Below are positions 157 through 52,463 of a DNA stretch of 64,000 bases, in pieces; within the stretch, counting starts at the first letter, position 1, and each line of letters starts with the position of its first letter. Both the position numbers and the translations under genes were made by a program. Under the pieces are notes generated by a model. The model was not told where the DNA came from, searched no databases, and worked only from the letters and a program-made list of their open reading frames with translations. Source of the DNA: Escherichia phage vB_EcoM_ESCO10; the sequence record OM386655.1; one strand, given 5' to 3'.

Positions 157-2115
157 ATGGCTACTCCTACGAATTACCAATTAACAAGAACCGTTAACGC
201 TATCCCAAAAGTATTTGTGGGAGCTACGTTTGAAGAAATTAAAAAGAACATCATTGACTGGCTTTCTAGCCAGGAAGAATTTAAGGATTATGATTTCGTT
301 GGTTCTCGAATGAATATTCTTATCGATATGCTTGCTTATAATACGTTGTATATGCAGCAGTTTGCTAACACAGCTTTATACGAATCTTTTATAGGAACGG
401 CAAACCTTCGTTCTTCGGTTGTCCAGGCTGCACAAGATAACGGATATCTCCCTAGTTCTAAATCAGCGGCAAAAACTACGGTAATGCTTACTTGTACCCA
501 GGCCCTTAATGAAAAGAATATCCGTATCCCTAGAGGTACTAAATTCCTGGCTTATGCCCGTGATACATCAGCGGACCCGTATTCTTTTGTGACCACTGAT
601 AACGTTATTGCCGTACGCGATGTTAATAACCAATATTGGCCTATTGTTTCTTTGGCCCAGGGACGTATTATTCGTACTGAACTTAAATATGACCCTAAAA
701 CTCCTATTCTTATTCGTGACCCGGATATTGATAGACAAGAAGTTAAACTTTATGTTGATGGGGCCGAATGGATTAACTGGACTAATAAATCAATGGTCCA
801 TGCAGGCAGTACTTCAACAATTTATTATATGCGTGAAACCGTAGATGGTAATACAGAATTCTTCTTTGGTGAAGGTGAAGCCGAGAAATCCGTTGCCGGT
901 GGAGTATTAGAAGCTAATTATATCGGTGGTCTGAAACCTGTTAAAGATTCTACTATTGTTATCGAATATCTTCGTACAGACGGTGAAGTTGCTAACGGTG
1001 CAGTGGATTTCAGTTATGCAGACTCATTGGCTTATATAACCGTAGAAAAAATTACAGAAAACTATAATGACGACCCGGATTATGTGGGTGCTGACGGTGG
1101 CGGCGACCCTGAAGATATTGAACGCATTCGAGAGCTGGCTGTAGTTAAGCGTGAAGCCCAGATGCGTGCTGTTACAGGAACCGACTATGATACATTCGTG
1201 TCTGAACGTTTTGGTTCTATTGTACAGGCAGTACAAACCTTTACAGACTCAAATAAACCAGGTTATGCTTTTGTTACCATTAAACCTAAATCAGGGCTGT
1301 ATTTGACCGCTGTTCAACGTGAAGATATCCAAGATTATCTAAAAGAATTTAACTTAGCACCTATTACCCCTTCTGTTATTTCTCCCGACTATTTGTTCTT
1401 AAAGCATAAAATTAAAGTTTCTTATGCTCTGAATAAATTACAGGAATCTGAACAGTGGTTATCGGCTCAAATTCTTTCTCAGATAGATCGTTATTATATT
1501 AACGAAGTAGAAATTTTTAACCACGGTTTCGCTAAGTCTAAAATGTTGACTTATATTGATAATGCAGACCACAGTATTTTAGGTTCTTCGGCTACAGTAA
1601 CAATGGTTCGTGAGGTATTGAACTTTTTCAAAACTCCTGAGTCAGGTATTAAATACTATAATCAATACACTAACCGTTCTGTGGTTTCTAGTGAATTTGA
1701 GTTTGTCCCTACTAACGTTTCTGAAGACCTCCCATCATATAATGTCAGAATTGCTGCTACAGATAAAGATGAGCGTGGTGATGGTAAAATAATTATTGGT
1801 CCTTTCCGTCCAGGAGATGTGATTGAAAACCAATATATTAAACCTTATACAGGAAATGACTTTGATAAAATGCCGGCTCCTGCGGACCAATCTGTTTATT
1901 ACGTTATAGGTGAAATCGATTATTATTCGGATTTCATTTTCTGGGACATTGCGGCTATCGGTTTAACGTCTGATCGTTTTGAAGTTCAATCTATAGAACT
2001 TTATGCAGGACCTGACCAAGATAACATCTTTACAAAAGACGGTTCGTTAATTGTATTTGAAGATGACCTCCGCCCTCAATACACGACCATTGAATTAGAA
2101 CCTATTACAATATAA
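157..2115 (+). CDS. 6: baseplate wedge subunit gp6
   Basis: 652 aa; N-terminus MATPTNYQLTRT...FVGSRMNILIDMLAYNTLYMQQF closely matches T4 gp6 as recalled; synteny 5.4-6-7. Confidence 0.95.
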   Translation: MATPTNYQLTRTVNAIPKVFVGATFEEIKKNIIDWLSSQEEFKDYDFVGSRMNILIDMLAYNTLYMQQFANTALYESFIGTANLRSSVVQAAQDNGYLPSSKSAAKTTVMLTCTQALNEKNIRIPRGTKFLAYARDTSADPYSFVTTDNVIAVRDVNNQYWPIVSLAQGRIIRTELKYDPKTPILIRDPDIDRQEVKLYVDGAEWINWTNKSMVHAGSTSTIYYMRETVDGNTEFFFGEGEAEKSVAGGVLEANYIGGLKPVKDSTIVIEYLRTDGEVANGAVDFSYADSLAYITVEKITENYNDDPDYVGADGGGDPEDIERIRELAVVKREAQMRAVTGTDYDTFVSERFGSIVQAVQTFTDSNKPGYAFVTIKPKSGLYLTAVQREDIQDYLKEFNLAPITPSVISPDYLFLKHKIKVSYALNKLQESEQWLSAQILSQIDRYYINEVEIFNHGFAKSKMLTYIDNADHSILGSSATVTMVREVLNFFKTPESGIKYYNQYTNRSVVSSEFEFVPTNVSEDLPSYNVRIAATDKDERGDGKIIIGPFRPGDVIENQYIKPYTGNDFDKMPAPADQSVYYVIGEIDYYSDFIFWDIAAIGLTSDRFEVQSIELYAGPDQDNIFTKDGSLIVFEDDLRPQYTTIELEPITI

Positions 2116-2143
2116 GCCTCTTAGGAGGCTTTGAGGAGATTTA

Positions 2144-5100
2144 ATGTCTGTACAAGCGCCTTCCGTTACTAGTTTGAGAATCGATAAACTCTCGGCTAAC
2201 CATGTAAGTATTCTTTGGGATGACGTAGGCGCCAATTTCTATTATTTCGTAGAACTGGCCCAAACCAAGGATGCGGGTGAATCTATACCCGATGATAAGT
2301 TATTTTGGAGAAATTTAGGTTATACCCCGAACAACAATTGGTTCGAAGAAAGATTTATTTCTCCTAATTCGTTTTATAAAATGCGTGTCGCTGTAGCAGC
2401 TCAAGGATTTGAACAATCTGACTGGGTTTATACAGAAGAATTCGAGACATTTTCTACCAACGCATATACCTTCGAGCATATGCGAGAATTCACTTTATCT
2501 AATAAATTCATTGAAGAAAAATTTACCAAAAATAACCAGAGTTACGTGGATTTTAATAGTGACGCCATTATGGCTTCTATGATGGCCGAAGATTTTACTT
2601 GGACTCCGGCATATTCGCACCTTTCTTCAATTTCTAATTATGTATTAAAGGCCGACCGCTTCCATGAGATTCAAGGAAGTATCCAAGCTGTTTGTAAAGA
2701 CCCTAATCGTTCCATTTTAATGGAGCTTGGTGGAGTACTTTATCTTTTAGAAAGATTTCAGAACACTGCTAAGGTATCTAATGACAAAGCTCAAAACTGG
2801 CACTATATTCGCCTGTTTAACGACCGAGTTGGTAATCCGGTTTCACGTACGGCCCATTACCAAACAGACACCACAACTTATGTTTTAGGTTATGATCGTA
2901 TATTTTACGGACGTAAATCGAGCGATATCAGATGGTCTGCTGATGATGTACGTTTTAGCTCGCAAGATGTGACTTTTGCTAAAATTGGTAGTGATATTGA
3001 CCTTGATTTTGAAATTGAAATTTTTGGTTCTTATGCTCGTTTACCGTTAGCTATTTCTACTATAGCAGAGGCAATATGTGCTTCGGATGATTTTATTTAC
3101 GTAGCTGCTAGAGACAGAGTTTATAAAGCAAAAACCACTGATGCCCCTATTGACACCGATCCAGGTTCACCTACTTACGGTGAAAAAATATTTGAAAGTG
3201 GATATTCTTCTATAACAGGTAATCCTAAAGCGGTTTGTTATAAACTGGATTCTATTCAGGGAAATACCTTTGCCTTAATTACAGGCGAAGTTAAAGAAGA
3301 AAGAATGGACCCTACTAAAGAAGAAAACGTGGTTGATTCTGAATCTAAAGGTGTTTATTGGCTTGATGTCGAAACCGATACATGGACCCGAGTATTTGGT
3401 AATACTGAAGAAGAGAGACGCCGTATTGAGCATGGTTATACCAGCATGTCTACAGATGGTGAAGAAATATTCTTTAGTTCTAGCAACTTCAAATATGAGG
3501 TAGAAGTTGACAATGAATTGCCTTTAGAATACCCTATCGTGGCTTCTGCAGTAAAATACGTTAAGGATGAGCAGTGGATTCACGATAAACACTATCTTAT
3601 GATGAGCTTTAGGGCTAACAGTAAATCAGATTTTAAAGAATTCAAACCTGGTAGAATGGCTTATTATGCTGAACCGTTCTTTAGTTGGTCTAGACGTGAT
3701 GGGACCCGCTCTTGGATTACCACAAGTAATCATGTAATGGTGGTTTATAATGATGCTTTATATCAGAAAATTATTGATTTAAACAGTGGTTCTTCTCCTG
3801 AACGTATTATCCGTGAAATTTGGAATAAAGGCTTTTGTACTGTAACATGCCCTAACATCGAATTCAATGGGTTTAAAAAATATTCTTCAGGTATCATGAT
3901 TCATAAATCATCAGGTGAATTGGTAGGATATTTTGAGTTCGATTATCGAGTTCGAGACGAGGTTAGAATAATTTGGAAGCCTAAAGAAATAATGTTTACG
4001 GCTGAGCTCCAAAACCAAGAGCATGAGATTCCATGGACTCCTAAAGAAGAAACCGGTGAACAGGACCCTGATTTGCGTCCTTTATTGGTTAAAATGGTTC
4101 CTGATAGTTATTTGCTTCAAGATTCTAACTTTGAAAAATTCTGCGAATATTATCTTCAATTTATTAGTGATGGCTCCGGCACCCATTATAATAATCTATT
4201 AAATCTTATTCGCAACCAATATCCTAGAGAAGAAGATGCATGGGAATACTTATGGTCCGAAATCTATAAACGTAATATCTATTTGTCTAAAGAAAAGCGT
4301 GATGAAGTAGTTCGTTTCTTCCAGGCTCGACAATCTGATTTCTGGTCTACAAAAGGTACCGAAGCTTCTTATAAGTTCTTGTTTAAATTGCTTTATAACG
4401 AAGATGTTGAAATTGATATCGAGTCTAAAAACTCTATTGAATACGATATCATCGTAGAATCTGATAATATCAGTGAAGATATAGTCGGCCAAACAATTTA
4501 TACTCCTACAGGAAGAAGTAATGTTACTTATATAGAACGAAATTATAAAGATGGTAAATTGCAATGGCGTTTAACCATTCATAATCTTTTAGGTCGTTTT
4601 ATAGTGGGTCAAGAGATTAAATCTGAACGCACATCATTTAAAGGTATGATAGTGCAGGGTGTACGCGGTAAAGAATTGTTAAGTAACAATATCGATTATA
4701 TTAACCGCAACCGTTCTTATTATGTTATGACTATTAAATCAAACCTCCCAACTTCTCGCTATCGTAATGACGTGTTGAGATTTGTCCATCCGGTAGGATT
4801 TGGTTTTATAGGGATTACATTGCTTTCTATGTTTGTTAATGTCGGTTTGACATTAAAGCACACGGAAACCATTATTAATATACTTAAGAACTATAAGTGG
4901 GACTCGGGACTTCCGTCAGAATGGTATGATAGAGTTGCTGTAATCGGATTTGATGGTAATATAGAACGAGACCCTAGAACAGGGCTCCCGGTTTATAATG
5001 TCGGTCCGAAAGCAGGTGAACCATTCCCTATTCCGGCAGATTATGATACAGAAAATGATTTCTCTGTATTCCAAGGCCAATTACCTCATGAACGTATTAA

Positions 5101-5236
5101 AAAGCACAGTCCTTTATTTGACCAAAGCGCGGTAACATTTTCAAAATGGCGAGCTTTAGTTGACGACAGACTTAAAGCTGATATCGGAAACCCTAGAGAC
5201 CCACAAGACCCAACTCAGGTAAAAATTGATGATTAA
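2144..5236 (+). CDS. 7: baseplate wedge initiator gp7
   Basis: 1030 aa ORF, size and position as T4 gp7; SD GAGGAG upstream. Confidence 0.93.
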   Translation: MSVQAPSVTSLRIDKLSANHVSILWDDVGANFYYFVELAQTKDAGESIPDDKLFWRNLGYTPNNNWFEERFISPNSFYKMRVAVAAQGFEQSDWVYTEEFETFSTNAYTFEHMREFTLSNKFIEEKFTKNNQSYVDFNSDAIMASMMAEDFTWTPAYSHLSSISNYVLKADRFHEIQGSIQAVCKDPNRSILMELGGVLYLLERFQNTAKVSNDKAQNWHYIRLFNDRVGNPVSRTAHYQTDTTTYVLGYDRIFYGRKSSDIRWSADDVRFSSQDVTFAKIGSDIDLDFEIEIFGSYARLPLAISTIAEAICASDDFIYVAARDRVYKAKTTDAPIDTDPGSPTYGEKIFESGYSSITGNPKAVCYKLDSIQGNTFALITGEVKEERMDPTKEENVVDSESKGVYWLDVETDTWTRVFGNTEEERRRIEHGYTSMSTDGEEIFFSSSNFKYEVEVDNELPLEYPIVASAVKYVKDEQWIHDKHYLMMSFRANSKSDFKEFKPGRMAYYAEPFFSWSRRDGTRSWITTSNHVMVVYNDALYQKIIDLNSGSSPERIIREIWNKGFCTVTCPNIEFNGFKKYSSGIMIHKSSGELVGYFEFDYRVRDEVRIIWKPKEIMFTAELQNQEHEIPWTPKEETGEQDPDLRPLLVKMVPDSYLLQDSNFEKFCEYYLQFISDGSGTHYNNLLNLIRNQYPREEDAWEYLWSEIYKRNIYLSKEKRDEVVRFFQARQSDFWSTKGTEASYKFLFKLLYNEDVEIDIESKNSIEYDIIVESDNISEDIVGQTIYTPTGRSNVTYIERNYKDGKLQWRLTIHNLLGRFIVGQEIKSERTSFKGMIVQGVRGKELLSNNIDYINRNRSYYVMTIKSNLPTSRYRNDVLRFVHPVGFGFIGITLLSMFVNVGLTLKHTETIINILKNYKWDSGLPSEWYDRVAVIGFDGNIERDPRTGLPVYNVGPKAGEPFPIPADYDTENDFSVFQGQLPHERIKKHSPLFDQSAVTFSKWRALVDDRLKADIGNPRDPQDPTQVKIDD

Positions 5237-6233
5237 CTCAACAGTAATATACCGTTCTATTGTTACTTCTAAATTTAGAACGGAAAAAATGTACAACTTT
5301 TACAGAACAATCGGTGATGGCGAAGACCAGAACACGATGTATGTATCTTTCGGAAGAGCCCAACCATGGGCTCCTAACGAAAACGACCCAGGCTTTGCTC
5401 CGCCGTATCCTGTGGATGATTCTGAGGGCGTAGAGGATGTCTGGACAAACATGATGGGTTGTGTTAAGGTTTATAAGAGTATGCTGGATTGTGTTGTTCC
5501 TCGCAAAGACTGGGGCGATACCTCTTATCCTAATCCTTTCACATTCCAGATTGGTGAAATTGTAGTGGCGAATAGCCAGCCACAAAACCGTACTGATGTC
5601 GGTGCAGGTTGGATGGTTTATCGTTGTGTAGACGTTCCTGAATCTGGAGCATGCTCTATTTTATCTCTTGATAACAAAACAGAGTGTATTAAACTTGGTG
5701 GTAAATGGACCGCTAATGTCCCTTCAGTTAAAGCCCCAGCTGGACAAGGTGACACTGAAGGTATGGTTGATACAGGCGACGGTTATCTTTGGGAATATCT
5801 TTATGAGATTCCACCTGATGTGAGCATTAACCGTTGTACCAATGAATACATTGTGGTTCCATGGCCGGAAGAAATTGCTGAAGACCCCGAACGTTGGGGA
5901 TATGAAAATAACCTCACTTGGCAACAAGATGATTATGGGTTGATTTATCGTATTAAAGGCAATACTATTCGTTTTAAAGCATTCCTAGATTCGGTTTATT
6001 TCCCTGAATTTAGTTTGCCAGGGAATAAAGGATTTAGACAACTTTCAATAATTTCTAACCCATTGGAAGCTAAAGCCCACCCATCCGATCCGATCATTAA
6101 AGCCGAAAAAGAGTACTATGATGTTATAGACCTCTCCCGCCACTCAGGTGAAATGATTTATATGGAAAACCGTCCTCCGGTTATTCGTTCCATGGACCAA
6201 ACCGAAGAAATTAACATTATCTTCGAATTCTAG
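5229..6233 (+). CDS. 8: baseplate wedge subunit gp8
   Basis: ORF track starts at TTG 5226; in-frame ATG at 5229 gives MINSTVIYRSIVTSKFRTEK matching T4 gp8 N-terminus; overlaps gene 7 stop. Confidence 0.92.
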   Translation: MINSTVIYRSIVTSKFRTEKMYNFYRTIGDGEDQNTMYVSFGRAQPWAPNENDPGFAPPYPVDDSEGVEDVWTNMMGCVKVYKSMLDCVVPRKDWGDTSYPNPFTFQIGEIVVANSQPQNRTDVGAGWMVYRCVDVPESGACSILSLDNKTECIKLGGKWTANVPSVKAPAGQGDTEGMVDTGDGYLWEYLYEIPPDVSINRCTNEYIVVPWPEEIAEDPERWGYENNLTWQQDDYGLIYRIKGNTIRFKAFLDSVYFPEFSLPGNKGFRQLSIISNPLEAKAHPSDPIIKAEKEYYDVIDLSRHSGEMIYMENRPPVIRSMDQTEEINIIFEF

Positions 6234-6294
6234 AAAGGGGCCGCAAGGCCCTTTCGGGGGTATAAATACGTTATATCAATAATGAGGCATACCT

Positions 6295-7155
6295 ATGATT
6301 AAGCAAACTGGTAAATTACTAATTGACGTTGGTGAAATTGGTAATGCTAGCACCGGCGACATCTTATATGACGGTGGTGTTAAACTAAACACCGACTTAA
6401 ACAACATCTATAATACCTTTGGTGACCAACGTAAGGCATCTCTTACAGGCGAAACTACCGGCCAGAAATTACACGCCACCGGATATTACCAAAAATTCGG
6501 CGATTCAGACCAAGCAGGTTCTGTTGACCTTGGCTCCTTGGTTGATATTGATGCTTCCACAGGCTCTATAGTTTTAACTACGGTAAAAGGGGCTGTGGGT
6601 GAAGGTATTGAAATAATTAACTCTAATGGAAGTATTTCAGCTACTAATTATCTTGAAATCCGTATATTGGACTCGTTTTTAAACCACCCTACATCAACTC
6701 TAAGAATAGTAACCCCTTATACTCGAGTTCTGTTATGGTGCGTAAGTGATATAAACGGGATAGCTGTATGGGATTATTCTATTGAGAGTATGTTTGGTGA
6801 TAAACGAGTACCGTTAAATAGAACATATAACATTTCTGACGTATCTAGAGATATCCCGGTGGTTTTTTCAGGACAATATTCTTTGGTCAAGCTTTTAGTT
6901 ACAGCAGTAAATGCTAATGAAACCATTTATAAAGCTTCTGAATATCTTTTGTTTATGGATAACCAAGCTAAAAAAATATATTCTACAGAATATGCCGTTA
7001 TCCGTCGTGGACAGGCCACTGATGAAGACGAAATTTACAAACTCGATTTTAAATTTGATACCTCTAACTATATAGTGGCTACGGCATCATCTGAAACCCC
7101 TATGAGATTAGCAATTAAAGTCGTAGATACCCAAACTATTGGAGTTCCAGTATAA
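6295..7155 (+). CDS. 9: baseplate wedge tail fiber connector gp9
   Basis: 286 aa; GEIGNASTGDILYDGG and WDYSIESMFG motifs as in T4 gp9; late promoter TATAAATA 27 nt upstream. Confidence 0.93.
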   Translation: MIKQTGKLLIDVGEIGNASTGDILYDGGVKLNTDLNNIYNTFGDQRKASLTGETTGQKLHATGYYQKFGDSDQAGSVDLGSLVDIDASTGSIVLTTVKGAVGEGIEIINSNGSISATNYLEIRILDSFLNHPTSTLRIVTPYTRVLLWCVSDINGIAVWDYSIESMFGDKRVPLNRTYNISDVSRDIPVVFSGQYSLVKLLVTAVNANETIYKASEYLLFMDNQAKKIYSTEYAVIRRGQATDEDEIYKLDFKFDTSNYIVATASSETPMRLAIKVVDTQTIGVPV

Positions 7156-8966
7156 TGAAACAAGAATTAAAAATAGGCCAGGCCGTTGACGATGGCTCCG
7201 GAGATTACCTGCGTGCAGGTGGTCTAAAAATCAATAATAACTTTAATGAGTTATACTATCAATTAGGTGATGGAGATAATCCTCACGCGGCTGGTGCCTG
7301 GAAACAATATTCTACTGCAGATGGTCCTTTACTTAATGCTGTTATGGGTCATAGCTATACGTTGAATACCCAAGGTGGAAGGATTAACGTTCAGCTTCCT
7401 AAAGGCACCCCTTCAGAGTATAACTTTGTAATTCGTTTGCGTGATGTTTATTCTTCTTGGCAAGCGAACCCTGTAACAATTATACCTGCTCCAGGCGATA
7501 CGATTAAAGGCTCTGCTGTTCAAGTTGAAATAGCACGTAATTTCGCTGACCTTGAACTTGTTTATTGTGCTCCAGGGCGTTGGGAATATGTTGAGAATAA
7601 GCAAGTTAACCGTATCCCAAATAACGACCTCGCTACTGTAGCAACCAAACAGTTTATTGCTACTGAAGGTCAAACTGATTTCTTGGATATTTTCCCAGGA
7701 TTGACCTATAATATTTCTAGTCTTAGTGTAATTCAACGCGGTAACACCCTGTTTTATGGTGTAGATGATATATTTGATGAAGCCACTTCAGAGTTTGGTA
7801 GCCCAGGCACTAACCCGGGTGAATTGGTTGAATTGAATGGTAAAGATATCCGTTTGAAATATCCATGTGAAGCCGGTGATACAGTAATCATTAAATCATA
7901 TAATGATGGGTTGGCTCAATGGCGTAGTTCTTACAATCGTCGTGATATTACAATTTTAGATAAAGCTTTGACTCACGAAACATCAGTCAATGGTTCTAAA
8001 ATAGTATTAGACCTTTCTACTATACAAACCATTACAGCAGTAGAATTAAATGTTTCTCCTACAAGCCCTATTAACCCTAATGCTTGCCAGGTAATGCTTA
8101 ACAGTACATTAATGCATCAAGCAGGCACCGCAGGTTATCCAGCATTTTATTGTGAAGGTGTTGATACGGATGATGCAGGCCTTTGTGCTGATTCAGGCGG
8201 CGTGTGGACCCAATCTAAATCTGATTATATTTTGAATATTGCAGATGACGATAAAATTGAATCATTCGAATTTGGACGTAAATTAGAACATGGTGATATC
8301 CTTACCGTAATTTGGTACAATAATGATATTGGTACTACCATGACTATTGACGAGATTTTAGATACTACAAATGATATCTACATTTCTCAAGGACCTTCGG
8401 TGTCTTTAACAGGACAAGTTCGTATTACTGACGTAGATAATCCGTTTTCTCCTAACTTTGAACCGGTGGCAGAATCCGAAGTTTCTATTAATACAGCTGC
8501 AGTTATGTTTGATTTGTTCCACCCAATAGGGACGATTTATGAAAACACCGTGAACCCTAATAACCCTGCAACTTATATGGGTATGGGCAGTTGGAAACGT
8601 TTATCAGATAGTTTCCTTGTAGGTTGGTCACCAGATGCAGATTCGTTGTTCAATGCGAACAATAATGATTTGGATTCTGCAGGTGTTCCGCAGTCTACTG
8701 CAGGTGGTACAGGTGGCTCTCATAATATTTCTATTAAGTATGAAAACGTTCCTGAACTTACTACCGATGAAAAGGTTCTTGTTGCTGATGATAATGGTAC
8801 TGTGGTTGTTGGTGGCTGTTTGGTTGACCCGGATGCACAAGGCCCTGCTTATACTAAATATCGTGAAGATAATGCCACGATTAATAAACAACAATCTACC
8901 ACGCCTATTCCAATTGGTACTTTGCCTCCATATACAACCGTTTATCGCTGGGTGAGGATTGCGTAA
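7155..8966 (+). CDS. 10: baseplate wedge subunit and tail pin gp10
   Basis: 603 aa; N-terminus MKQELKIGQAVDDGSGDYLRAGGLKINNNFNELYYQLGDGD resembles T4 gp10; ATGA overlap with gene 9. Confidence 0.93.
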   Translation: MKQELKIGQAVDDGSGDYLRAGGLKINNNFNELYYQLGDGDNPHAAGAWKQYSTADGPLLNAVMGHSYTLNTQGGRINVQLPKGTPSEYNFVIRLRDVYSSWQANPVTIIPAPGDTIKGSAVQVEIARNFADLELVYCAPGRWEYVENKQVNRIPNNDLATVATKQFIATEGQTDFLDIFPGLTYNISSLSVIQRGNTLFYGVDDIFDEATSEFGSPGTNPGELVELNGKDIRLKYPCEAGDTVIIKSYNDGLAQWRSSYNRRDITILDKALTHETSVNGSKIVLDLSTIQTITAVELNVSPTSPINPNACQVMLNSTLMHQAGTAGYPAFYCEGVDTDDAGLCADSGGVWTQSKSDYILNIADDDKIESFEFGRKLEHGDILTVIWYNNDIGTTMTIDEILDTTNDIYISQGPSVSLTGQVRITDVDNPFSPNFEPVAESEVSINTAAVMFDLFHPIGTIYENTVNPNNPATYMGMGSWKRLSDSFLVGWSPDADSLFNANNNDLDSAGVPQSTAGGTGGSHNISIKYENVPELTTDEKVLVADDNGTVVVGGCLVDPDAQGPAYTKYREDNATINKQQSTTPIPIGTLPPYTTVYRWVRIA

Positions 8967-44060: not shown

Positions 44061-45155
44061 TTGATAATGAAAGTAAAAGAACTCGACTTTGATGTAGCCT
44101 CCTTATTTAAAGGAGGTTCAAAAACCTCCGCAGGTCAATCTAAAGCTAAACCGGCCCAAACTACGGTAACAGCCCAGTATCCAGCAGAGAGGGCTTCCGG
44201 TAATGATACTTCTACAGATATGGTACTAAACGATTTATATAAAAATGGTTTACTTTTTACAGCATATAATTTTAGCTCTCGTGTATCGCCCGATTTGCGT
44301 AATGACCGTTCGAGCCAAATGACTAAAAAGTTTTCAAAAGCCGCTAATAAACTTACCGGTAATACTGGTGGGTTCAGTGCAGTTAAAAACCTGTTTAGTA
44401 GCAACTCTAAAGGAGTAAAATTTGATAGCCAGGCTTTAGCCAACATTTTACTCCCACGTTCCAAGTCTGATGTTGATTCAGTCACCCATAAATTTAATGA
44501 TGTAGGCGAATCATTAATTACTAAAGGCGGTGGTACTGCTACAGGTATTTTGAGTAACGTTGCTAGTACTGCGGTATTTGGTGCATTGGAATCTGTAACT
44601 AATGGGGTAATGGCTGATTCAGGAGAACAGATATATACCACCGCTCGTAGTATGTACGCAGGACCTGATAACCGTACTAAAGTATTTACTTGGGAAATGA
44701 CCCCTAGAAATGCTCAGGACCTTATCCAGATTATCAAAATATACGAAATCTTTAATTATTATTCTTATGGCGAAACAGGCAACTCTGCCTTCGCGGGTGA
44801 ATTAAAAGAGAAGATTGACACATGGTACAGGTCTACATTTAAAAAAGAAGCTATTGATAACTTTGATGGTAAGCTATTAGGAGAAGGTATTACAAGTTTC
44901 CTTTCCAATGTTATTGTAGTAAGTAACCCGACCATTTGGTATATTCGAAACTTTGGCGATACAAGTTCATATGACGGGCGCGAAGATATTTTTGGACCGT
45001 GTCAAATCCAGAGTATACGATTTGACAAAACTCCTGATGGGCATTTTAATGGTTTGGCTATTGCTCCTAACTTACCATCTACATTTAGTTTAGAAGTTAC
45101 TTTCCGTGAAATCATTACTTTGAACCGTGGCTCACTTTATACGGAAGGATTCTAA
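44061..45155 (+). CDS. 48: baseplate tail tube cap gp48
   Basis: 364 aa, same length as T4 gp48; synteny. Confidence 0.9.
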   Translation: MIMKVKELDFDVASLFKGGSKTSAGQSKAKPAQTTVTAQYPAERASGNDTSTDMVLNDLYKNGLLFTAYNFSSRVSPDLRNDRSSQMTKKFSKAANKLTGNTGGFSAVKNLFSSNSKGVKFDSQALANILLPRSKSDVDSVTHKFNDVGESLITKGGGTATGILSNVASTAVFGALESVTNGVMADSGEQIYTTARSMYAGPDNRTKVFTWEMTPRNAQDLIQIIKIYEIFNYYSYGETGNSAFAGELKEKIDTWYRSTFKKEAIDNFDGKLLGEGITSFLSNVIVVSNPTIWYIRNFGDTSSYDGREDIFGPCQIQSIRFDKTPDGHFNGLAIAPNLPSTFSLEVTFREIITLNRGSLYTEGF

Positions 45156-46108
45156 TGTATACTTTACAAGAATTTCAGAATCAGGCAATTAATATTGACC
45201 TACAAAGGAATAACCTGTTTAGCGTAGTATTTGCTACAGTTCCTTCTTCTAAATCCCAAGCGCTCCTCGACCAGTTCGGTGGAGCTTTATTTAACAACAT
45301 CCCTTTAAATACAGATTTGCTGGGTATTACACAAGGAGAGTTGACTCAAGGTGTTACGACATTAGTGACAGCGGGCACTCAGAAGTTGATTCGTAAGTCA
45401 GGCATAAGTAAATATCTGATTGGTGCTATGTCATCCAGGGTTGTGCAGAGTTTACTAGGTGAGTTTGAAGTCGGGACTTATCTTATGGATTTTTTCAATA
45501 TGGCTTATCCCACTGCGGGACTTTTAGTCCATGCAGTTAAAATCCCGGATAACACGTTGAATTATGAAATGGACCTTAACCATAACTCTCCTAATATAAA
45601 AATCACTGGAAGAGAATATTCCCCATTAGTATTAAGCTTCCGTATGGATTCTGAAGCTGCTAACTACCGTGCTTTTAATGATTGGGTCAATAGTGTCCAA
45701 GACCCTATTACGCAGCTAAGAGCATTACCTGAAGATGTTGAAGCTGACATCCAAGTCAACCTTCATTCTCGTAACGGATTGCCACATACGGTAGTAATGC
45801 TTAACGGTTGCGTTCCCGTTAGTGTTTCATCACCGGAATTATCCTACGACGGTGATAACCAAATTGCTTCGTTTGATGTTACATTTGCTTATAGAAGTAT
45901 ACAGACAGGTGCAGTTGGTAAACAAGCTGCTTACGAATGGTTGGAAGATAAAGTCCTTAAAGGTGTAGCGGGTCTAAGTGAGAGTAACTCATTAAGTTCT
46001 TCTGTAGCTAAATTGAGTAGACTTTCAGGAGCAGCAAGTGGATTGACTGGATTGGTTAATACGTTTGGTGGACGTGCTATTAATAATGGAATATCAAGGT
46101 TGTTATAA
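45155..46108 (+). CDS. 54: baseplate tail tube initiator gp54
   Basis: 317 aa; size and position as T4 gp54. Confidence 0.9.
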   Translation: MYTLQEFQNQAINIDLQRNNLFSVVFATVPSSKSQALLDQFGGALFNNIPLNTDLLGITQGELTQGVTTLVTAGTQKLIRKSGISKYLIGAMSSRVVQSLLGEFEVGTYLMDFFNMAYPTAGLLVHAVKIPDNTLNYEMDLNHNSPNIKITGREYSPLVLSFRMDSEAANYRAFNDWVNSVQDPITQLRALPEDVEADIQVNLHSRNGLPHTVVMLNGCVPVSVSSPELSYDGDNQIASFDVTFAYRSIQTGAVGKQAAYEWLEDKVLKGVAGLSESNSLSSSVAKLSRLSGAASGLTGLVNTFGGRAINNGISRLL

Positions 46109-46114
46109 TAAAAA

Positions 46115-46134
46115 AGGAGAGCCTTGGCTCTCCT
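46115..46134. terminator. bidirectional terminator hairpin (GGAGAGCC...GGCTCTCC)
   Basis: 8-bp GC-rich stem flanked by A-run and T-run; between convergent gene 54 and minus-strand ORF. Confidence 0.65.
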
Positions 46135-46141
46135 TTAGGGG

Positions 46142-46432
46142 TTACTTACGGAACGAGATAAAACCTGCTGCAGTCATTAAGGGTTGCTTTTTAACAAATA
46201 CAGTAACTGAAATAGGAGCTTCAGATTCAAGCTGACCTGTCACTACACCATTAAAGATGTTTTCGGTTTGCTCAGGTTGTGAAAAATTTTCAACCGGGCG
46301 TAAGTCGAACTGCTTGTCTTCACCGAAAACGCGACGTAATTCATTACCTACTGCACTGTCGAACTCTTCAGAAGCTGGGATAACGTTTTCAACTACCAGT
46401 TCTTGACCATTAAAACGGAATGTAGATTTCAT
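46142..46432 (-). CDS. hypothetical protein (96 aa), downstream of alt genes
   Basis: ORF with ATG; occupies T4 alt.-x position; no family recognised. Confidence 0.45.
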   Translation of the reverse strand: MKSTFRFNGQELVVENVIPASEEFDSAVGNELRRVFGEDKQFDLRPVENFSQPEQTENIFNGVVTGQLESEAPISVTVFVKKQPLMTAAGFISFRK

Positions 46433-46489
46433 ATTGTTCTCCTCATGTTTGTGTAAGGTAATAGTACCACATCCTTGTGGTGTTGTAAA

Positions 46490-48613
46490 CTACATTTTGA
46501 ATTTAGTTGGTAAAGCGGAGATGTTCAAAGATGCTGCAAGGATTTCCATAGCTTCGTTGCTTTCAGAAATAGATTCACTAATCAAGAATTGGCTGAATCC
46601 ATCCATCAGGCGAACTTCGCCGGTTTCCATCAAATGGTCACCATCGTAAACAGATTCGCTGAGCTCTGAAGGAGGTGTTACGGTAGCTTCCATAAGGTAT
46701 TTGTGAGACACTCTATCATTCATGGCAAAAGCCGCTACTTTATCAACCTTCAACAATAATCCGCGCGGAAGGATAATTTCTGCTTCTTCGGCATATTCTG
46801 TAAGGTCGCCGGGAGCGATAACTTTAACTGCTTCAGCACCTCGAATAACCATACCAATTTCAGCAATTCTATCCGCAGGGCCTTCAGGTGCAATTGGATT
46901 ACCAAACTCGTCTTCTTCCCATTCTACCTCTTCGTCATCGACTTCACCCACATCAGATGAACTACCACTAGCCAATTTAAACAACTCATCAGCGGAGGAT
47001 AAAGAACCTTCACCACCAACAAAAACGGCTTGGTTGTCGAGGGCCATATAATTTTTACCGAATTCACCAAAGATGTTAGGCTTTAATGAGGCTGACACAA
47101 AGTTCTTAAAGTAAAATGTTTTGTTATCGATATTATGGCGCAGAATTTTGTATGGCAAATCCTGACCACGATACAAAATAGTACCCTTAGGAAGTTTAAT
47201 ACCCTTAGTAAATGCTGAGTCTAAATCCTTAATCAATTTAATAGCCGTTGTATTGTTTTCGGATTCAGGTTTACCTAAAAGGAATAAGTTCATAGGAGCA
47301 TATTCAGCTGCGCAATATTCAATAATAGCGTTGCTTTCGTCTTTGGTTAGGTCCTTAGGTTTAATGAGCTCACCTGAATAAGCATATGCATCACTAATAG
47401 AATCGTTAATTAGTTTATAAACGGCTTCCATAGCGAAAGCAATTCGAGAGGCCTTTTCTGAAGGGGAGCCTTTAAAACGAGCGCTCAAGTTATTAACAAT
47501 TTTCTTAATAATATCCAGACTATTGGTGGTATTGATTTGCGAAAGGCCGCTTAAAAGTCTATCGACTTCTGTATTAAAAAATGCCATATTTTTAGAGTAA
47601 ATTTCAAACCCTTGTTTATCTCTATTAGCATAATTTAGTTTAAATTTACTATCAGTCATTAAAGCGTGCGTGAGAGCAATGGTGTATCTAAAGTTGGCAA
47701 GGTCCTCGCTCTTAGATTTAAACTGAGAAGCCTGGCGCATTTTGGTAATAGCACCTTTTTTAAAGTTCTGGCTAATCTGTTCAATACCTTCATTCTCAGG
47801 GCCTTCGGCAGTGTGAACCGGTACAGAAGCTTCAAATTCGTTATATACCTGCAATTCTTTAGGGGACAAAGTTTCAGGCTCAGCAGTAGAATACTGTGCG
47901 GCTGCTGCCATACGACGGGAAATCTTAGTACGGGTAATGACAGCCTTATCAGTACGTTTCTCTTCAACCTTAGCGATACTTGCCGCCATAGCTTCGACCT
48001 TACTTACGGCTTGACCTGTTTTCTTAGAAACATAAACTTCACCAACTTTAGACTCGACCTTAGTATAAAGATCGGCATCAATTTCAGGCATACCTTTGAT
48101 ATCTTCGATATTAGAACCACGACGTACTAAAAGAACGTAGGTATGTTTTCCACTGAATTGGAACATATCATCAACAACTTTAAACTTACCACCAGTACGA
48201 GCCATTACTAAACGAGCCAATACACGTTGTACAGTAGGGCCCTTACCTTTCATTTTCTTAGTAGGGAAACGGAACAGAACTGCGTCCATTTTAAGTTTGT
48301 TTACTTGTTCATATACTGTATCGAAAATAGTATTCAATGCACCAAGTGGGTCAGAACCAAGTCCACCTTTGAGTTCAGCCGGGGCTCCTTTGCTTGACAA
48401 ACTCATTAGAATAACATGAACATATTTGTCACCCGGCTTAACCATTTTAACTGCGTCTCCTTGAGACGCATAAGATACCATACGAGCAACAAGGTTATCA
48501 TTACCTGGAGCTTGAATAGAGAAAATCTGTGGGATACCGGAACCTGGTTTAAGATTTGTTACTGGATAGTTTTTAGCGGAATCACTATCAAAAACTTCGT
48601 TTAAATTTTCCAT
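46490..48613 (-). CDS. Alt-like ADP-ribosyltransferase, paralog 2
   Basis: 707 aa; collinear with Alt (GSPAELKGGLG, MKGKGPTVQRVLARLV, TKISRR...); retains YRGQDL Arg, FKNFVSASL and EEAEIILPRGLL (ExE) motifs. Confidence 0.85.
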   Translation of the reverse strand: MENLNEVFDSDSAKNYPVTNLKPGSGIPQIFSIQAPGNDNLVARMVSYASQGDAVKMVKPGDKYVHVILMSLSSKGAPAELKGGLGSDPLGALNTIFDTVYEQVNKLKMDAVLFRFPTKKMKGKGPTVQRVLARLVMARTGGKFKVVDDMFQFSGKHTYVLLVRRGSNIEDIKGMPEIDADLYTKVESKVGEVYVSKKTGQAVSKVEAMAASIAKVEEKRTDKAVITRTKISRRMAAAAQYSTAEPETLSPKELQVYNEFEASVPVHTAEGPENEGIEQISQNFKKGAITKMRQASQFKSKSEDLANFRYTIALTHALMTDSKFKLNYANRDKQGFEIYSKNMAFFNTEVDRLLSGLSQINTTNSLDIIKKIVNNLSARFKGSPSEKASRIAFAMEAVYKLINDSISDAYAYSGELIKPKDLTKDESNAIIEYCAAEYAPMNLFLLGKPESENNTTAIKLIKDLDSAFTKGIKLPKGTILYRGQDLPYKILRHNIDNKTFYFKNFVSASLKPNIFGEFGKNYMALDNQAVFVGGEGSLSSADELFKLASGSSSDVGEVDDEEVEWEEDEFGNPIAPEGPADRIAEIGMVIRGAEAVKVIAPGDLTEYAEEAEIILPRGLLLKVDKVAAFAMNDRVSHKYLMEATVTPPSELSESVYDGDHLMETGEVRLMDGFSQFLISESISESNEAMEILAASLNISALPTKFKM

Positions 48614-48616
48614 TAT

Positions 48617-50701
48617 TTACCCTTGGATGAATTTTTCTGGGATGTCGTCAAAATCAATACATGAAGCCAAAAGAGGCAACACATCAAAACGTGTGGATTT
48701 TACAAATGAGTCAAAGGACACAGGACTTTCGGAAGTATCAAAATCATCTTGGTATACAGCCAATTCACCGGTTTCCATTAATACGTCACCATCATACACT
48801 ACAGATTCTTGAAGCTCATCTGTTGTCATAACTTCAGCTTGAATGAGCTTTGTATTACTAGATGTTGTCCCGTCATTATTAGAAGCATCAGTTATTTTAT
48901 TAACTTTGACCATCAATCCGCGCGGTAGAATAACTTCAGCTTCTGTTGCTATACCTAATTGGCCTGGATAAACAACATTAACTTTATGAGCACCGTCAAT
49001 AGCCCATCCTATTTGAACTTTAACGTATTCAGGATTTTCTCTATATGCTCTTATTTCGCTTGGGTTAATAGTTATTCCTTCTTCATTTTTATCAACTGTT
49101 AGTTCATTGCGAGCTTCTGGTTCTAAAAGACCCACGCCAGCGTGAGTAACACCAAAACGACCAAAAATAATAGGAGTCAGTGAAGTAGATACAAAATTTC
49201 TAAAATAGAACACTTTATTTTTAACTAGTGCTTCGTATATAGGAGCAGTCATACTTTGGGCACGATAAACTGTAATGCCTTCTGGTATACGGTCTCCATT
49301 TTCAAAAGCTGAATCCAGATTATTAACGGCAGATTCGATATCTTTTTCGCCCATAACCTCATAGTTCTGAGGATTATAACGTCCTAAAAGAAGGTTATTG
49401 ATATCACCATATCCGGAACCACAATATTCACGAATACCACGTTTTTGAGAAGGGGTATATTTATCTGCACTATGACCCAAAGTAATATCAACCATAATAC
49501 CGCCGCCCACACCAGCAAAACTATACACACGTTTTTTAATGAACTTGGTCTTGGCTGCTTTCCACTTGGACTCAGTCAATTCATTCCAGAGGTCATCAGG
49601 TTGCCCTTTACGGGTTTTGTTGTGCGTGGCCACCCACTCGCCTTTATATTCTTCGAAGACACTGTTAATAACCGAAGCATATTTTTCCAGAGCTTTAACA
49701 GATGTTAAAGGTTCATTTTTGATAGCCGTAAGGATTCTCTCTTTAATTTTCTCTTGGATTTCACCAATAGCATGAAGTGGGAACATTTTATATTCGTAAT
49801 GCAACTCTTCAGCAGTACCTTCAGCCACTATATTAACAACCTTATTTTTAGCCGCTGGAGAATTATTATTCGTAACCATTTCCTGCGCGTCAGGGATTAA
49901 TGGAGCTGTAGCCGGTTTATTAAAATCTGCTGAAGTAGCTTCATACTTCTTAAACAGTTCGCTTTCATTACGATAAGATTCTAACGATTGGCTTGCTGCA
50001 ATCGCTCGCCGCGAAATCTTAGTTTTGGTTATAACCATTTTATCAGTGCGACGTTCTTCAACTTTAGCAATACTGCCGGCAATAGCAGTTTCTTTAGTAA
50101 CCTGCACGCCTTCTTTTTTAGAAATATAAACTTCACCAACATCAGAATCTACCTTAGTATACAGTTCAGCATTAATTCCTGGCATACCTTTGATATCTTC
50201 GATATCAGCTTGTTTACGAACTACTAGGATATACGTGTGTTTACCTGTAAATTGGTACATGGCCGGAACTACTTTGAAGCGTCCGCCTGTTTTTTGAGTT
50301 ACTAAACGTTGGATAATTCTCTGGACAACAGGACCTTGACCTTTCATTTTCTTGGTAGGAAAACGGAACATAACAGCATCCATACGAAGCTTTTTAACTT
50401 GTTCGAATACTACGTCGAAAATGGTATTAATAGCATCAATAGGAGTAGGGCCTAAGCCGCCTTTAAGTTCAGCTGGTGAACCTTTAGCTGAAAGGCTCAT
50501 AAGGATGATGTGGGCGTATTTATCACCTAATTTAACCTGTTTAATAGCATCGCCTTCAGAGGCATAAGATACCATACGAGCAACCAATTGGGATTCGGCA
50601 TTACCGATCTTCCAAATCTGGGGCACTTTAAGTTTTGGGTTTAAGTTTACAGTAGGCAGGGTGCCTTCAGACTCAAACACTTCATTTAATTGTTCGGTCA
50701 T
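48617..50701 (-). CDS. alt: Alt ADP-ribosyltransferase (packaged, injected)
   Basis: 694 aa; C-terminal EAEVILPRGLMVKVNKITDASNNDGT...KLIQAEVMTTDELQESVVYDGDVLMETGEL near-identical to T4 Alt; FRNFVSTSL STS motif. Confidence 0.9.
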   Translation of the reverse strand: MTEQLNEVFESEGTLPTVNLNPKLKVPQIWKIGNAESQLVARMVSYASEGDAIKQVKLGDKYAHIILMSLSAKGSPAELKGGLGPTPIDAINTIFDVVFEQVKKLRMDAVMFRFPTKKMKGQGPVVQRIIQRLVTQKTGGRFKVVPAMYQFTGKHTYILVVRKQADIEDIKGMPGINAELYTKVDSDVGEVYISKKEGVQVTKETAIAGSIAKVEERRTDKMVITKTKISRRAIAASQSLESYRNESELFKKYEATSADFNKPATAPLIPDAQEMVTNNNSPAAKNKVVNIVAEGTAEELHYEYKMFPLHAIGEIQEKIKERILTAIKNEPLTSVKALEKYASVINSVFEEYKGEWVATHNKTRKGQPDDLWNELTESKWKAAKTKFIKKRVYSFAGVGGGIMVDITLGHSADKYTPSQKRGIREYCGSGYGDINNLLLGRYNPQNYEVMGEKDIESAVNNLDSAFENGDRIPEGITVYRAQSMTAPIYEALVKNKVFYFRNFVSTSLTPIIFGRFGVTHAGVGLLEPEARNELTVDKNEEGITINPSEIRAYRENPEYVKVQIGWAIDGAHKVNVVYPGQLGIATEAEVILPRGLMVKVNKITDASNNDGTTSSNTKLIQAEVMTTDELQESVVYDGDVLMETGELAVYQDDFDTSESPVSFDSFVKSTRFDVLPLLASCIDFDDIPEKFIQG

Positions 50702-50723
50702 AATAATTCCTCTTTAATAACCG

Positions 50724-50731
50724 TATTTATG
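50724..50731 (-). promoter_or_regulatory. late-promoter-like CATAAATA upstream of alt
   Basis: Minus-strand read CATAAATAcggttattaaagaggaattattATG; one mismatch to TATAAATA. Confidence 0.35.
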
Positions 50732-50737
50732 CCATTA

Positions 50738-50754
50738 AAGGCCCGAAGGCCTTT
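50738..50754 (-). terminator. hairpin AAAGGCC-CGAA-GGCCUUU between small ORF and alt
   Basis: 7-bp stem, GNRA-type loop, immediately 3' of the 60-aa ORF. Confidence 0.55.
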
Positions 50755-50755
50755 A

Positions 50756-50938
50756 TTAAAGTACTAATAGCGTACGGTATACTTCAAACTTAGGGCCCTT
50801 TTCATACCGGTCAAAAGTATCTTTGAAATCAGCAAAAGTGATTTCATTATCAAATTCAAGGATAATTTGTGAACATGAAGTAGAAACATCTCCACCTTCT
50901 TTATATCCAATAACCACGGTTTCTAAATAAGCTTTCAT
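50756..50938 (-). CDS. hypothetical small protein (60 aa)
   Basis: ORF track 50756..51004; ATG 50938 starts 1 nt after ligase stop (MKAYLETVVIGYKEGG...). Confidence 0.4.
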   Translation of the reverse strand: MKAYLETVVIGYKEGGDVSTSCSQIILEFDNEITFADFKDTFDRYEKGPKFEVYRTLLVL

Positions 50939-50939
50939 A

Positions 50940-52463
50940 TTATAACCCTGTCTGAGACCAATCACCAAATACGTCTTCAAACGTATCAGCTTCTGTTTTA
51001 TCAAATCGCCAACCTTTAATAATTGGGAGGAAAATACCTACAGTATCAGTACGTCCTTTAGAATGAACCCAACCATTGCATTCACAATCAGCAATACGTC
51101 CAATCAACTTACCTTCACGTGCTTGTTTCATAAGAAGTTCACGGTCTAAATCAGGACGATCTTCCAATGGAATCGACACCTTTTTACCTGATTTATCTTT
51201 CTTATGGGTGGTATCTTTAAAGCCAGAACCGCAGTCACTTGTAATTCGACGACAACGTGATACTAACTCGACACCACCAAGTTTGTTAGGGTCTTTAGAG
51301 TGTTCATAATAACCTACTACTTCTAAAGCGATATCGATTACTTCTTTGAACTTGATAAGATTCTTAGAACGGCGGTTTTCCCAGTAGGAGTCCATGTTCT
51401 TAAGGATAATACCTTCCAGACCTTGGTCGACGTATTTTTTATAAACGACTTTAGCTTCAGCCAAATTGTTAACCCATTGGTTTTCAATAGCTTCAACACG
51501 TGTTGTACCATGCAATACGACATTATGAGCAACCATAAGTTCTAAGGCAGTAAAGCGTAAATCATACTTATCGCCTTTAATTTTACCTTCGGAATACACT
51601 ACATCTAACGGAACGTAATCCCACGCCTGTAATACCATGCCAGCAGCTTCAGTAGCAGAAATAGTTCCTTGAAGAGCTTTGTTAGCCAAGCCGTTTGATG
51701 TAGAACGATCGGCGACGGTTTGGAATTCCTTTGCCTTACTTAATTCAGGGACTTCTTCATCAAACATGCTAAACAGGTCATTGGATGTTTTGGGTTCAAC
51801 CTTAGGGGTATGGTAAACTAATTCACCGTCAATCATAACACCATTAGGATGACGTTTACGAGCTTCTTCAGTCATCACCATTAATTCGGCTGCCAAAAGA
51901 TTAAGTCCTTGGTATTCATTACCACCACGGGTAAGGAATGTAACACCCGAATCACGTACTTCAGCAAAGCAACGAGCCCCATCAGCTTTTAATTGAGCAA
52001 ATGCAGGCCATTTAATATTTTTCTTAATCAGAGCTTCATCATAAGAACTAGCCAACATCTGAGGTTGTTCAGGGATTAAACCTTTCCAAACCTTGTTGGC
52101 AATAGAAATAGATGCACCACATTCAAGGTCACGCATCATTACACGACGTAATACCTCAACATCTTGTCCTTTGGCATCGGCAATAATTTGGGCAAGTTCT
52201 TCAATGGCCGCATTACCTGTAATCTTACGGGTGGCTAATGTGAACTCAGCGAAATCAAGAAGGTCTTCAAGTGTAATCATACCAAAGGATTGAGACGTAA
52301 ATCCAGGTTCTGGCCACTTTTTAATACCGTAGTTTAATCGGCGCGTATAAGCCATACGATAAACACGTTTAAGAAGCTCGTTGTCCTTTTCACGAGCAAT
52401 AATAGCTTCTTTAGCTTTGGTAGAATCGATAGCAGCAATTTCGTTCAAGATATCTAAAATCAT
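50940..52463 (-). CDS. 30: ATP-dependent DNA ligase gp30
   Basis: ORF track extends to 52502; ATG 52463 with GAGGT SD gives MILDILNEIAAIDSTKAK... matching T4 ligase start; contains FAQLKADGARCFAEV with active-site Lys motif KADG. Confidence 0.95.
   Translation of the reverse strand: MILDILNEIAAIDSTKAKEAIIAREKDNELLKRVYRMAYTRRLNYGIKKWPEPGFTSQSFGMITLEDLLDFAEFTLATRKITGNAAIEELAQIIADAKGQDVEVLRRVMMRDLECGASISIANKVWKGLIPEQPQMLASSYDEALIKKNIKWPAFAQLKADGARCFAEVRDSGVTFLTRGGNEYQGLNLLAAELMVMTEEARKRHPNGVMIDGELVYHTPKVEPKTSNDLFSMFDEEVPELSKAKEFQTVADRSTSNGLANKALQGTISATEAAGMVLQAWDYVPLDVVYSEGKIKGDKYDLRFTALELMVAHNVVLHGTTRVEAIENQWVNNLAEAKVVYKKYVDQGLEGIILKNMDSYWENRRSKNLIKFKEVIDIALEVVGYYEHSKDPNKLGGVELVSRCRRITSDCGSGFKDTTHKKDKSGKKVSIPLEDRPDLDRELLMKQAREGKLIGRIADCECNGWVHSKGRTDTVGIFLPIIKGWRFDKTEADTFEDVFGDWSQTGL

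Follow-up and report, generated by a model that had tools for sequence, protein, structure and literature searches.

The Alt protein of bacteriophage T4 (gpAlt, NP_049811) is an NAD+:protein-arginine ADP-ribosyltransferase that modifies RNA polymerase alpha at Arg265. It is a head-core protein, with about 40 copies per head, that is ejected into the host together with the DNA (PMC9958956, PMC9026906), and mass spectrometry has placed the cuts made in it by the prohead protease gp21 at ITE-6 and LTE-619, by which 6 N-terminal and 63 C-terminal residues are lost (PMC5694885). Alt paralogs were reported for RB49 and 44RR by Nolan et al. in 2006, together with the view that alt.-1 and alt.-2 of T4 are partial duplicates of alt (PMC1524935), and Jin et al. 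found the Alt gene duplicated in JS98, Bp7, and Ac42 in 2014 (PMC4177764). Here, we examined a 64,000-nucleotide stretch of Escherichia phage vB_EcoM_ESCO10 (sequence record OM386655.1; hereafter the window), which carries two alt genes in tandem, and we refer to their products as AltA (the upstream paralog) and AltB (the downstream paralog). Several lines of sequence and modeling evidence suggest that AltB is functional, and the explanation that we regard as reasonably probable is that AltA and AltB are two packaged, protease-trimmed, and injected arginine-specific ADP-ribosyltransferases with different sets of targets.

A preliminary description of this DNA, made from its letters, had proposed two co-oriented Alt homologs of about 700 amino acids (aa) separated by 3 nucleotides (nt), and this agreed exactly with the listing of open reading frames (ORFs): both genes are on the minus strand, the AltA stop codon ends at 48617, and the AltB ATG begins at 48613 (junction GGG TAA ATA ATG). 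With the T4 Alt family defined as PHROG 802 and by Pfam PF03496 plus the precomputed PF26846, the two proteins showed every family feature that can be read from sequence, the late-promoter signal apart. They matched PHROG 802 ("Alt-like RNA polymerase ADP-ribosyltransferase") from end to end, AltA over residues 1–693 (E = 4.9e-261) and AltB over residues 1–707 (E = 1.2e-251), and PF03496 (ADPrib_exo_Tox; cut-off, 23.4 bits) was matched with 119.5 bits (1.5e-34) by AltA and 63.9 bits (1.7e-17) by AltB. In BLASTP, the two proteins were 38% identical with an E value of 2e-143, which excludes chance similarity. By domain, their identity was 67% over the N-terminal 236 residues, 16% in the middle region, 40% in the catalytic domain, and 39% in the tail; thus, the divergence that had been described for the downstream paralog held for the middle region and the tail, whereas the N terminus, listed with them, is where the two proteins are most conserved. 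By these matches, AltA and AltB are full-length T4 Alt homologues. Plus-strand ORFs overlapping both alt genes were taken as chance frames, since they lie inside well-supported coding sequence of the opposite strand.

Both paralogs had also been said to keep intact Arg, Ser-x-Ser, and E-x-E motifs. All of these are present (Table 1), in register with LYRSQ, STS, and EMEVILPRG of T4 Alt, and conserved in 114 to 121 of 121 aligned homologues. For AltB, the counts were 120 for R482, 121 for S507, 114 for S509, and 121 for both E610 and E612, and in the comparison that the preliminary description had proposed as a check, its R, S, and E-x-E residues lined up with those of T4 Alt, ModA, and ModB alike. 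The Ser motif of AltB was correctly read as SAS rather than STS; the middle residue of this motif is Thr in 116 of the homologues and Ala in 3, AltB included. The T4 ModA motif is also S-A-S in the alignment, and since ModA is an active enzyme, SAS is no sign of a defect and was rejected as one.

AltB is under strong purifying selection. Compared with the JS10 and MX01 orthologues, its ratio of nonsynonymous to synonymous substitution rates (dN/dS, by the method of Nei and Gojobori) was 0.055 to 0.078 overall and about 0.02 in the catalytic domain, and the value for AltA was comparable (0.06). A search of the PDB with AltB returned nothing at an E value of ≤0.01, and because it gave no solved Alt structure, the fold comparison rested on an AlphaFold (AF2) model, computed for AltB as the one paralog covered, from the 121-sequence alignment (mean predicted local distance difference test [pLDDT] score, 80; predicted template modeling score, 0.71). 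Foldseek matched the C-terminal domain of this model with Vis, C3bot, Certhrax, VIP2, and CDTa at a probability of 1.00, a template modeling score (target) of about 0.6, and E values down to 5e-7. The modeled AltB catalytic domain thus matches the C3/VIP2-type ADP-ribosyltransferase fold. Between S-x-S and E-x-E, AltB carries an acidic insertion (aa 520–582; 46868–47056) with 17 acidic and 3 basic residues, in which the pLDDT fell below 50 at residues 552–567 and 573–580; the stretch from about 552 to 580 is the sole internal region of low confidence. The most acidic part of the insertion (VDDEEVEWEEDEFGNP...) is missing from the AltB of phage T2 and is specific to the AltB of Dhakavirus.

As for processing, L-x-E motifs aligned with both cut sites of T4 Alt in each of the two proteins, namely, LNE-7 and LQE-632 in AltA and LNE-6 and LSE-653 in AltB, a correspondence at the level of the motif. 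The motif Glu is conserved in all 121 homologues at the N-terminal site and in 120 of them at the C-terminal site (E653 of AltB), and Leu or Ile stands two positions before it in 118 and 116, respectively. The predicted mature proteins are AltA 8–632 (69.4 kDa) and AltB 7–653 (71.1 kDa). The aligned motifs support the packaging and trimming of both paralogs, short of proof.

The tandem alt pair as such is already known: it is annotated in public records, has been published since 2006, and is widespread. Megablast of positions 46000..51200 against GenBank phages returned 31 records with at least 80% query coverage and about 89 to 91% identity, and these were Dhakavirus members, e.g., JS10, IME08, IME281, NC-G, and MX01. 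The window is Dhakavirus DNA, about 90% identical to that of JS10, IME08, and JS98, and by the AltB N-domain the closest relative is phage UP19 (97.9%). In the JS10 and IME08 records, the pair is named alta and altb, with identical lengths of 694 and 707 aa and the identical 3-nt gap. JS10 altb (YP_002922542) is 96% identical in protein to the window AltB, JS10 alta is YP_002922543, and AltA is 94 to 98% identical per domain to its JS10 and MX01 counterparts. Order, gap, and lengths are shared with JS10, IME08, JS98, and UP19, the DNA divergence is about 10%, and structurally nothing is different.

A tblastn search with the AltB middle segment (aa 240–420) matched 445 phage records, of which 43 showed ≥95% identity and 402 about 44 to 47% identity with 100% coverage. 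The latter group came nearly entirely from Escherichia, Shigella, and Yersinia phages, T2, RB9, RB68, and wV7 included, and was of the Tequatrovirus type in every row among the matches listed. The Alt N-domain occurred at 1,811 places in 1,201 phage records, and multi-copy alt loci are therefore common. The layout gene 54/alt.-3/AltB/AltA/alt.1/gene 30 with 3-nt spacing was seen in JS10, UP19, MX01, and T2, and as a remnant in T4. The window pair sits in this slot, flanked by gene 54/alt.-3 on one side and by alt.1/gene 30 on the other, with genes 29-48-54 on the opposite strand. Among T-even phages, the arrangement of two alt genes is old and widely distributed.

In T2, gene 30 is followed by alt.1 and a 697-aa alt, and after a 3-nt gap come a 685-aa "hypothetical protein," alt.-3, and gene 54; phage JK08 has the same layout, with the second paralog named alt_1. 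The hypothetical protein (BBC14817, T2_202), hereafter T2 AltB, is an orthologue of the window AltB and resembles it in the middle region (48% identity), the catalytic domain (59%), the downstream slot, the 3-nt gap, the insertion that follows S-x-S and starts with GKNYMALD, and the ...KFKM C terminus. It differs in carrying STS rather than SAS and in lacking the most acidic insertion part, and its N-domain is 68% identical to those of T2 and T4 Alt but only 45% identical to that of Dhakavirus AltB. In T4, the AltB slot holds two small ORFs, alt.-1 and alt.-2, which according to a RefSeq note go back to an old duplication of the beginning of alt. When translated, they are almost the same as residues 1–60 of T2 AltB, beyond which stops break up the frame, and the window Alt proteins also matched two small PHROGs that correspond to alt.-1 and alt.-2. 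By this comparison, alt.-1/alt.-2 are a truncated remnant of an AltB-type gene, about 1.7 kb of which T4 has deleted. The earlier statement that T4 carries a single alt is right as to one intact copy but misleading, as T4 keeps this remnant and T2 and about 400 other records, mostly of Tequatrovirus, have the second gene intact and at the 3-nt distance. Alignment thus places the window AltB in a subfamily with JS10 altb, T2_202, and the T4 alt.-1/alt.-2 remnant.

Compared with T4 Alt, both window proteins have the same four parts (N-domain, middle region, catalytic domain, and C-terminal tail), the R/S-x-S/E-x-E residues, L/I-x-E at both mapped cleavage sites, and the same genomic slot. Overall identity to T4 Alt is 49% for AltA and about 36 to 44% for AltB, and the AltB middle region (11% identical) is unrelated to that of T4 Alt at the sequence level; AltB also has an extra acidic insertion after S-x-S. 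The AltA catalytic domain, by comparison, is 93% identical to that of T2 AltA and 64% identical to that of T4 Alt. A third Alt paralog, which the window lacks, lies between AltA and AltB with 3-nt spacing in MX01 (YP_009324092, 681 aa; NC_031934, stretch 4120–6165) and is also carried by QL01, C6, AnYang, WG01, fDHCT2, and PSD9. The MX01 copy is 91% identical to the window AltB in the N-domain and 70% identical to AltA in the tail, and its middle region (15 to 25%) and catalytic domain (33 to 40%) set it apart from both as a third module type. T4 ModA and ModB share the R-S-E residues and the catalytic fold with the window proteins, and ModA shares S-A-S as well; however, they are single-domain early proteins of about 200 aa without N-domain, middle region, or propeptides. 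The window proteins, with 694 and 707 aa, extra domains, and 15 to 19% identity over the catalytic domain, were accordingly not assigned to the ModA/ModB type. The AltB model also has its catalytic fold and R-S-E residues in common with the C3-, VIP2-, and iota-type R-S-E ADP-ribosyltransferases. No ART-like adaptor fold of the kind found in VIP2 and iota toxin was seen in the Alt N-domain, and a binary-toxin enzymatic component (VIP2, iota Ia, or CDTa) was rejected on this ground.

Different parts of the Alt proteins group the phages differently. The N-domain sorts by genus, with 67 to 68% identity between the paralogs of one genome and 41 to 46% for cross-genus pairs, whereas the middle and catalytic domains sort by paralog type, against the N-domain grouping. 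T2 AltA and T2 AltB are 68% identical in the N-domain, 17% in the middle region, and 38% in the catalytic domain, while the window AltB and T2 AltB are 45%, 45 to 48%, and 59% identical in these parts, respectively. T2 AltA (LC348380, stretch 1696–3789, compared with T4 stretch 5455–7503) is a mosaic: its N-domain and tail are 99% and 93% identical to those of T4 Alt, but its catalytic domain is 67% identical to that of T4 Alt and 93% identical to that of Dhakavirus AltA, with a synonymous divergence (dS) of 0.52 that is not above the values within Dhakavirus. This pattern indicates a probable recent exchange of an effector module between Tequatrovirus and Dhakavirus. Within one genome, the AltA and AltB N-domains have a dS of about 1.4, at which synonymous sites are saturated; recent gene conversion behind their likeness was thus ruled out, and any homogenization must be old. 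Old homogenization and co-adaptation to lineage-specific head-core partners account equally well for the N-domain likeness. Together, the comparisons suggest a delivery domain tied to the phage lineage and effector modules exchanged between lineages, and we could distinguish at least four types of such modules (T4 Alt, Dhakavirus/T2 AltA, AltB, and MX01 AltC).

Under the explanation that we prefer, in which both paralogs are injected effectors, a single promoter upstream of AltA would drive late transcription of the two genes, with AltB translation coupled over the 3-nt gap, and both proteins would be incorporated into the prohead core. The protease gp21 would then trim them at the N-terminal L-N-E and the C-terminal L-x-E, and they would leave the head with the DNA and, through R/S-x-S/E-x-E, carry out NAD+-dependent transfer of ADP-ribose to arginines of host proteins. 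Because the middle regions and catalytic domains of AltA and AltB differ so strongly, it is most likely that the two act on different host targets. Homology, catalytic residues, purifying selection, fold, cleavage motifs, and synteny were obtained here, and we infer that transcription is late, that both proteins are packaged, cleaved, injected, and active, and that they are specific for arginine and for their targets. Several points weigh against this explanation. The specificity for arginine is taken from what generally holds for E-x-E enzymes, and an acidic, low-confidence insertion of about 60 residues splits S-x-S from E-x-E in AltB. T4 grows without AltB, which makes the protein dispensable at least in laboratory hosts. 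The candidate late promoter of AltA, CATAAATA, departs from the T4 late consensus TATAAATA at one position, and no exact TATAAATA occurs in the alt interval. Furthermore, literature searches found no virion proteomics or enzymology separating Alt paralogs, nor experiments on an AltB-type protein.

Other roles for AltB have to be set against these considerations. If AltB were packaged and active but redundant with AltA, it would modify the same targets (e.g., RNA polymerase alpha) and bring a gain in dose or robustness. The two proteins do agree in the conserved N-domain, in the catalytic residues, and in both motifs for processing, one copy suffices in T4, and we also counted for redundancy that T4 Alt reportedly has many protein substrates (PMC9503650, citing Depping 2005). 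We nevertheless consider it unlikely, given the 16% and 40% identities in the middle and catalytic domains, the separate purifying selection on each paralog, and the way the types stay distinct across genera, with the AltB of Dhakavirus resembling that of T2 more than it does the AltA beside it. Rather unlikely, too, is an active AltB that is not injected and either acts late in the producing cell or works within the head core as a structural or regulatory component, for instance, as a partner of AltA. Co-transcription with AltA would put AltB late, and a genus-wise N-domain, which fits head-core co-adaptation, could equally reflect a structural role; however, both L-x-E motifs are in register with those of T4 Alt, which is packaged and ejected (PMC5694885, PMC9026906), and a purely structural function would not need full conservation of the catalytic residues.

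That AltB is a duplicate in decay or without catalytic activity, on the path taken by T4 alt.-1/alt.-2, we regard as very improbable. T4 shows that an AltB-type gene can vanish, and the SAS in place of STS, the large acidic insertion in the catalytic domain, and a Pfam match that scores lower than that of AltA and is split in two stretches might be read as early signs of such a loss. Yet the reading frame is open over all 707 codons, none of R, S, and E-x-E has been lost, the active ModA also has SAS, the fold model is confident, orthologues are intact in the 445 phage records, and dN/dS is low throughout and lowest in the catalytic domain. The dN/dS values, the uninterrupted frame, and the conservation of the catalytic residues led us to reject a pseudogene or dead enzyme.

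Extending the preferred explanation of two injected enzymes, we put forward tentatively, as a possibility to which we give less than even weight, that the alt locus of T-even phages consists of polymorphic-toxin-like cassettes, in which a lineage-specific N-domain, fitted to the head core of the phage concerned, would deliver swappable modules made up of the middle region plus the catalytic domain. AltB would then be a widespread injected effector with a target of its own, possibly a host defense or stress protein, and would have been overlooked since T4 deleted it.

The features of the locus are collected in Table 1. Promoter, terminator, and Shine-Dalgarno calls were made by pattern matching only. 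A good Shine-Dalgarno sequence (AAAGAGGAA) lies between CATAAATA and the AltA ATG, and the hairpin on the far side of CATAAATA was not flagged by the terminator scan because it has no T run. Neither reading of the sequence nor the promoter and terminator scan found a promoter- or terminator-like element between AltA and AltB, and co-transcription with coupled translation would therefore be the simplest reading. In the whole window, exact matches to TATAAATA numbered 16 against 7.2 expected, and 14 of them lie from 6261 to 39918 on the plus strand, in keeping with a large block of late structural genes there. The sign of the GC skew switches near 46 to 48 kb, where the direction of transcription flips. 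On the plus strand, the gene for a gp48 homologue (baseplate tail tube cap; 44061–45155) is listed with a TTG start (MIMKVKEL...), and its true start may be the internal ATG found two codons farther on. C-terminal extensions of T4 Alt.-3, whose homologue neighbors AltB in the window, let the phage escape the CmdTAC defense, with CmdA degradation blocked (PMC11618068).

Table 1. Features of the alt locus, with positions counted from the first letter of the window
Feature	Position	Strand	Residues	Basis or remarks
AltA (upstream paralog)	48617..50701	-	694 aa	ATG start; ORF listing; T4 alt position, catalytic module of Dhakavirus/T2 type
AltA N-domain	50000-50701	-		
AltA ADP-ribosyltransferase domain	48782..49489	-	405-640	
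AltA Arg motif YRAQ	49256..49267	-	479-482	R480
AltA Ser motif STS	49181..49189	-	505-507	
AltA ExE motif EAEVILPRG	48917..48943	-	587-595	E587-A-E589
AltA L-Q-E	48803..48814 (spans LQES)	-	630-632	Aligns with T4 Alt LTE-619
AltB (downstream paralog)	46490..48613	-	707 aa	ATG start; ORF listing
AltB N-terminal domain	47906..48613	-	1-236	Kept across all Alt paralogs
AltB L-N-E motif	48596..48604	-	4-6	Aligns with T4 Alt ITE-6 cleavage site
AltB middle helical region	47354..47905	-	237-420	Defines AltB type; predicted all-helical, pLDDT about 80-90
AltB ADP-ribosyltransferase domain	46649..47353	-	421-655	
AltB Arg motif YRGQ	47162..47173	-	481-484	Arg482
AltB Ser motif SAS	47087..47095	-	507-509	
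AltB ExE motif EAEIILPRG	46760..46786	-	610-618	Glu610-Ala-Glu612
AltB L-S-E	46652..46663 (spans LSES)	-	651-653	Aligns with T4 Alt LTE-619 site
AltB C-terminal tail	46493..46648	-	656-707	Predicted propeptide for prohead protease; ends ...KFKM, like T2 AltB
alt.1 homologue	50756..50938	-	60 aa	PHROG 1976, 1.8e-30; between DNA ligase gene 30 and AltA; alt.1 in JS10, T4, T2
GC-rich hairpin AAAGGCC-TTCG-GGCCTTT	50737..50754	-		Between alt.1 and CATAAATA element; read from sequence
Late-promoter-like CATAAATA	50724..50731	-		22 nt upstream of AltA ATG; read from sequence
Early-promoter-like TTTACA-17-TACTAT, upstream TG	46461..46489	-		Before alt.-3; pattern scan
alt.-3 homologue	46142..46432	-	96 aa	PHROG 1739, 1.3e-42; alt.-3 in JS10, T4, T2
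Strong terminator	46113..46136	-		After alt.-3; pattern scan

As a finding, the tandem pair adds little, because alt pairs of the JS98/JS10 type are annotated and alt duplication has been in print since 2006. What matters is that work on T4 Alt cannot speak for the AltB-type enzyme, because T4 has a truncated remnant only, and that T2 and hundreds of coliphages that are candidates for therapy have an AltB that is intact, conserved, and under selection. Targets of AltB in the first seconds of infection would widen our grasp of host takeover by T-even phages, and they could explain differences in host range or defense evasion between T4 and its relatives.

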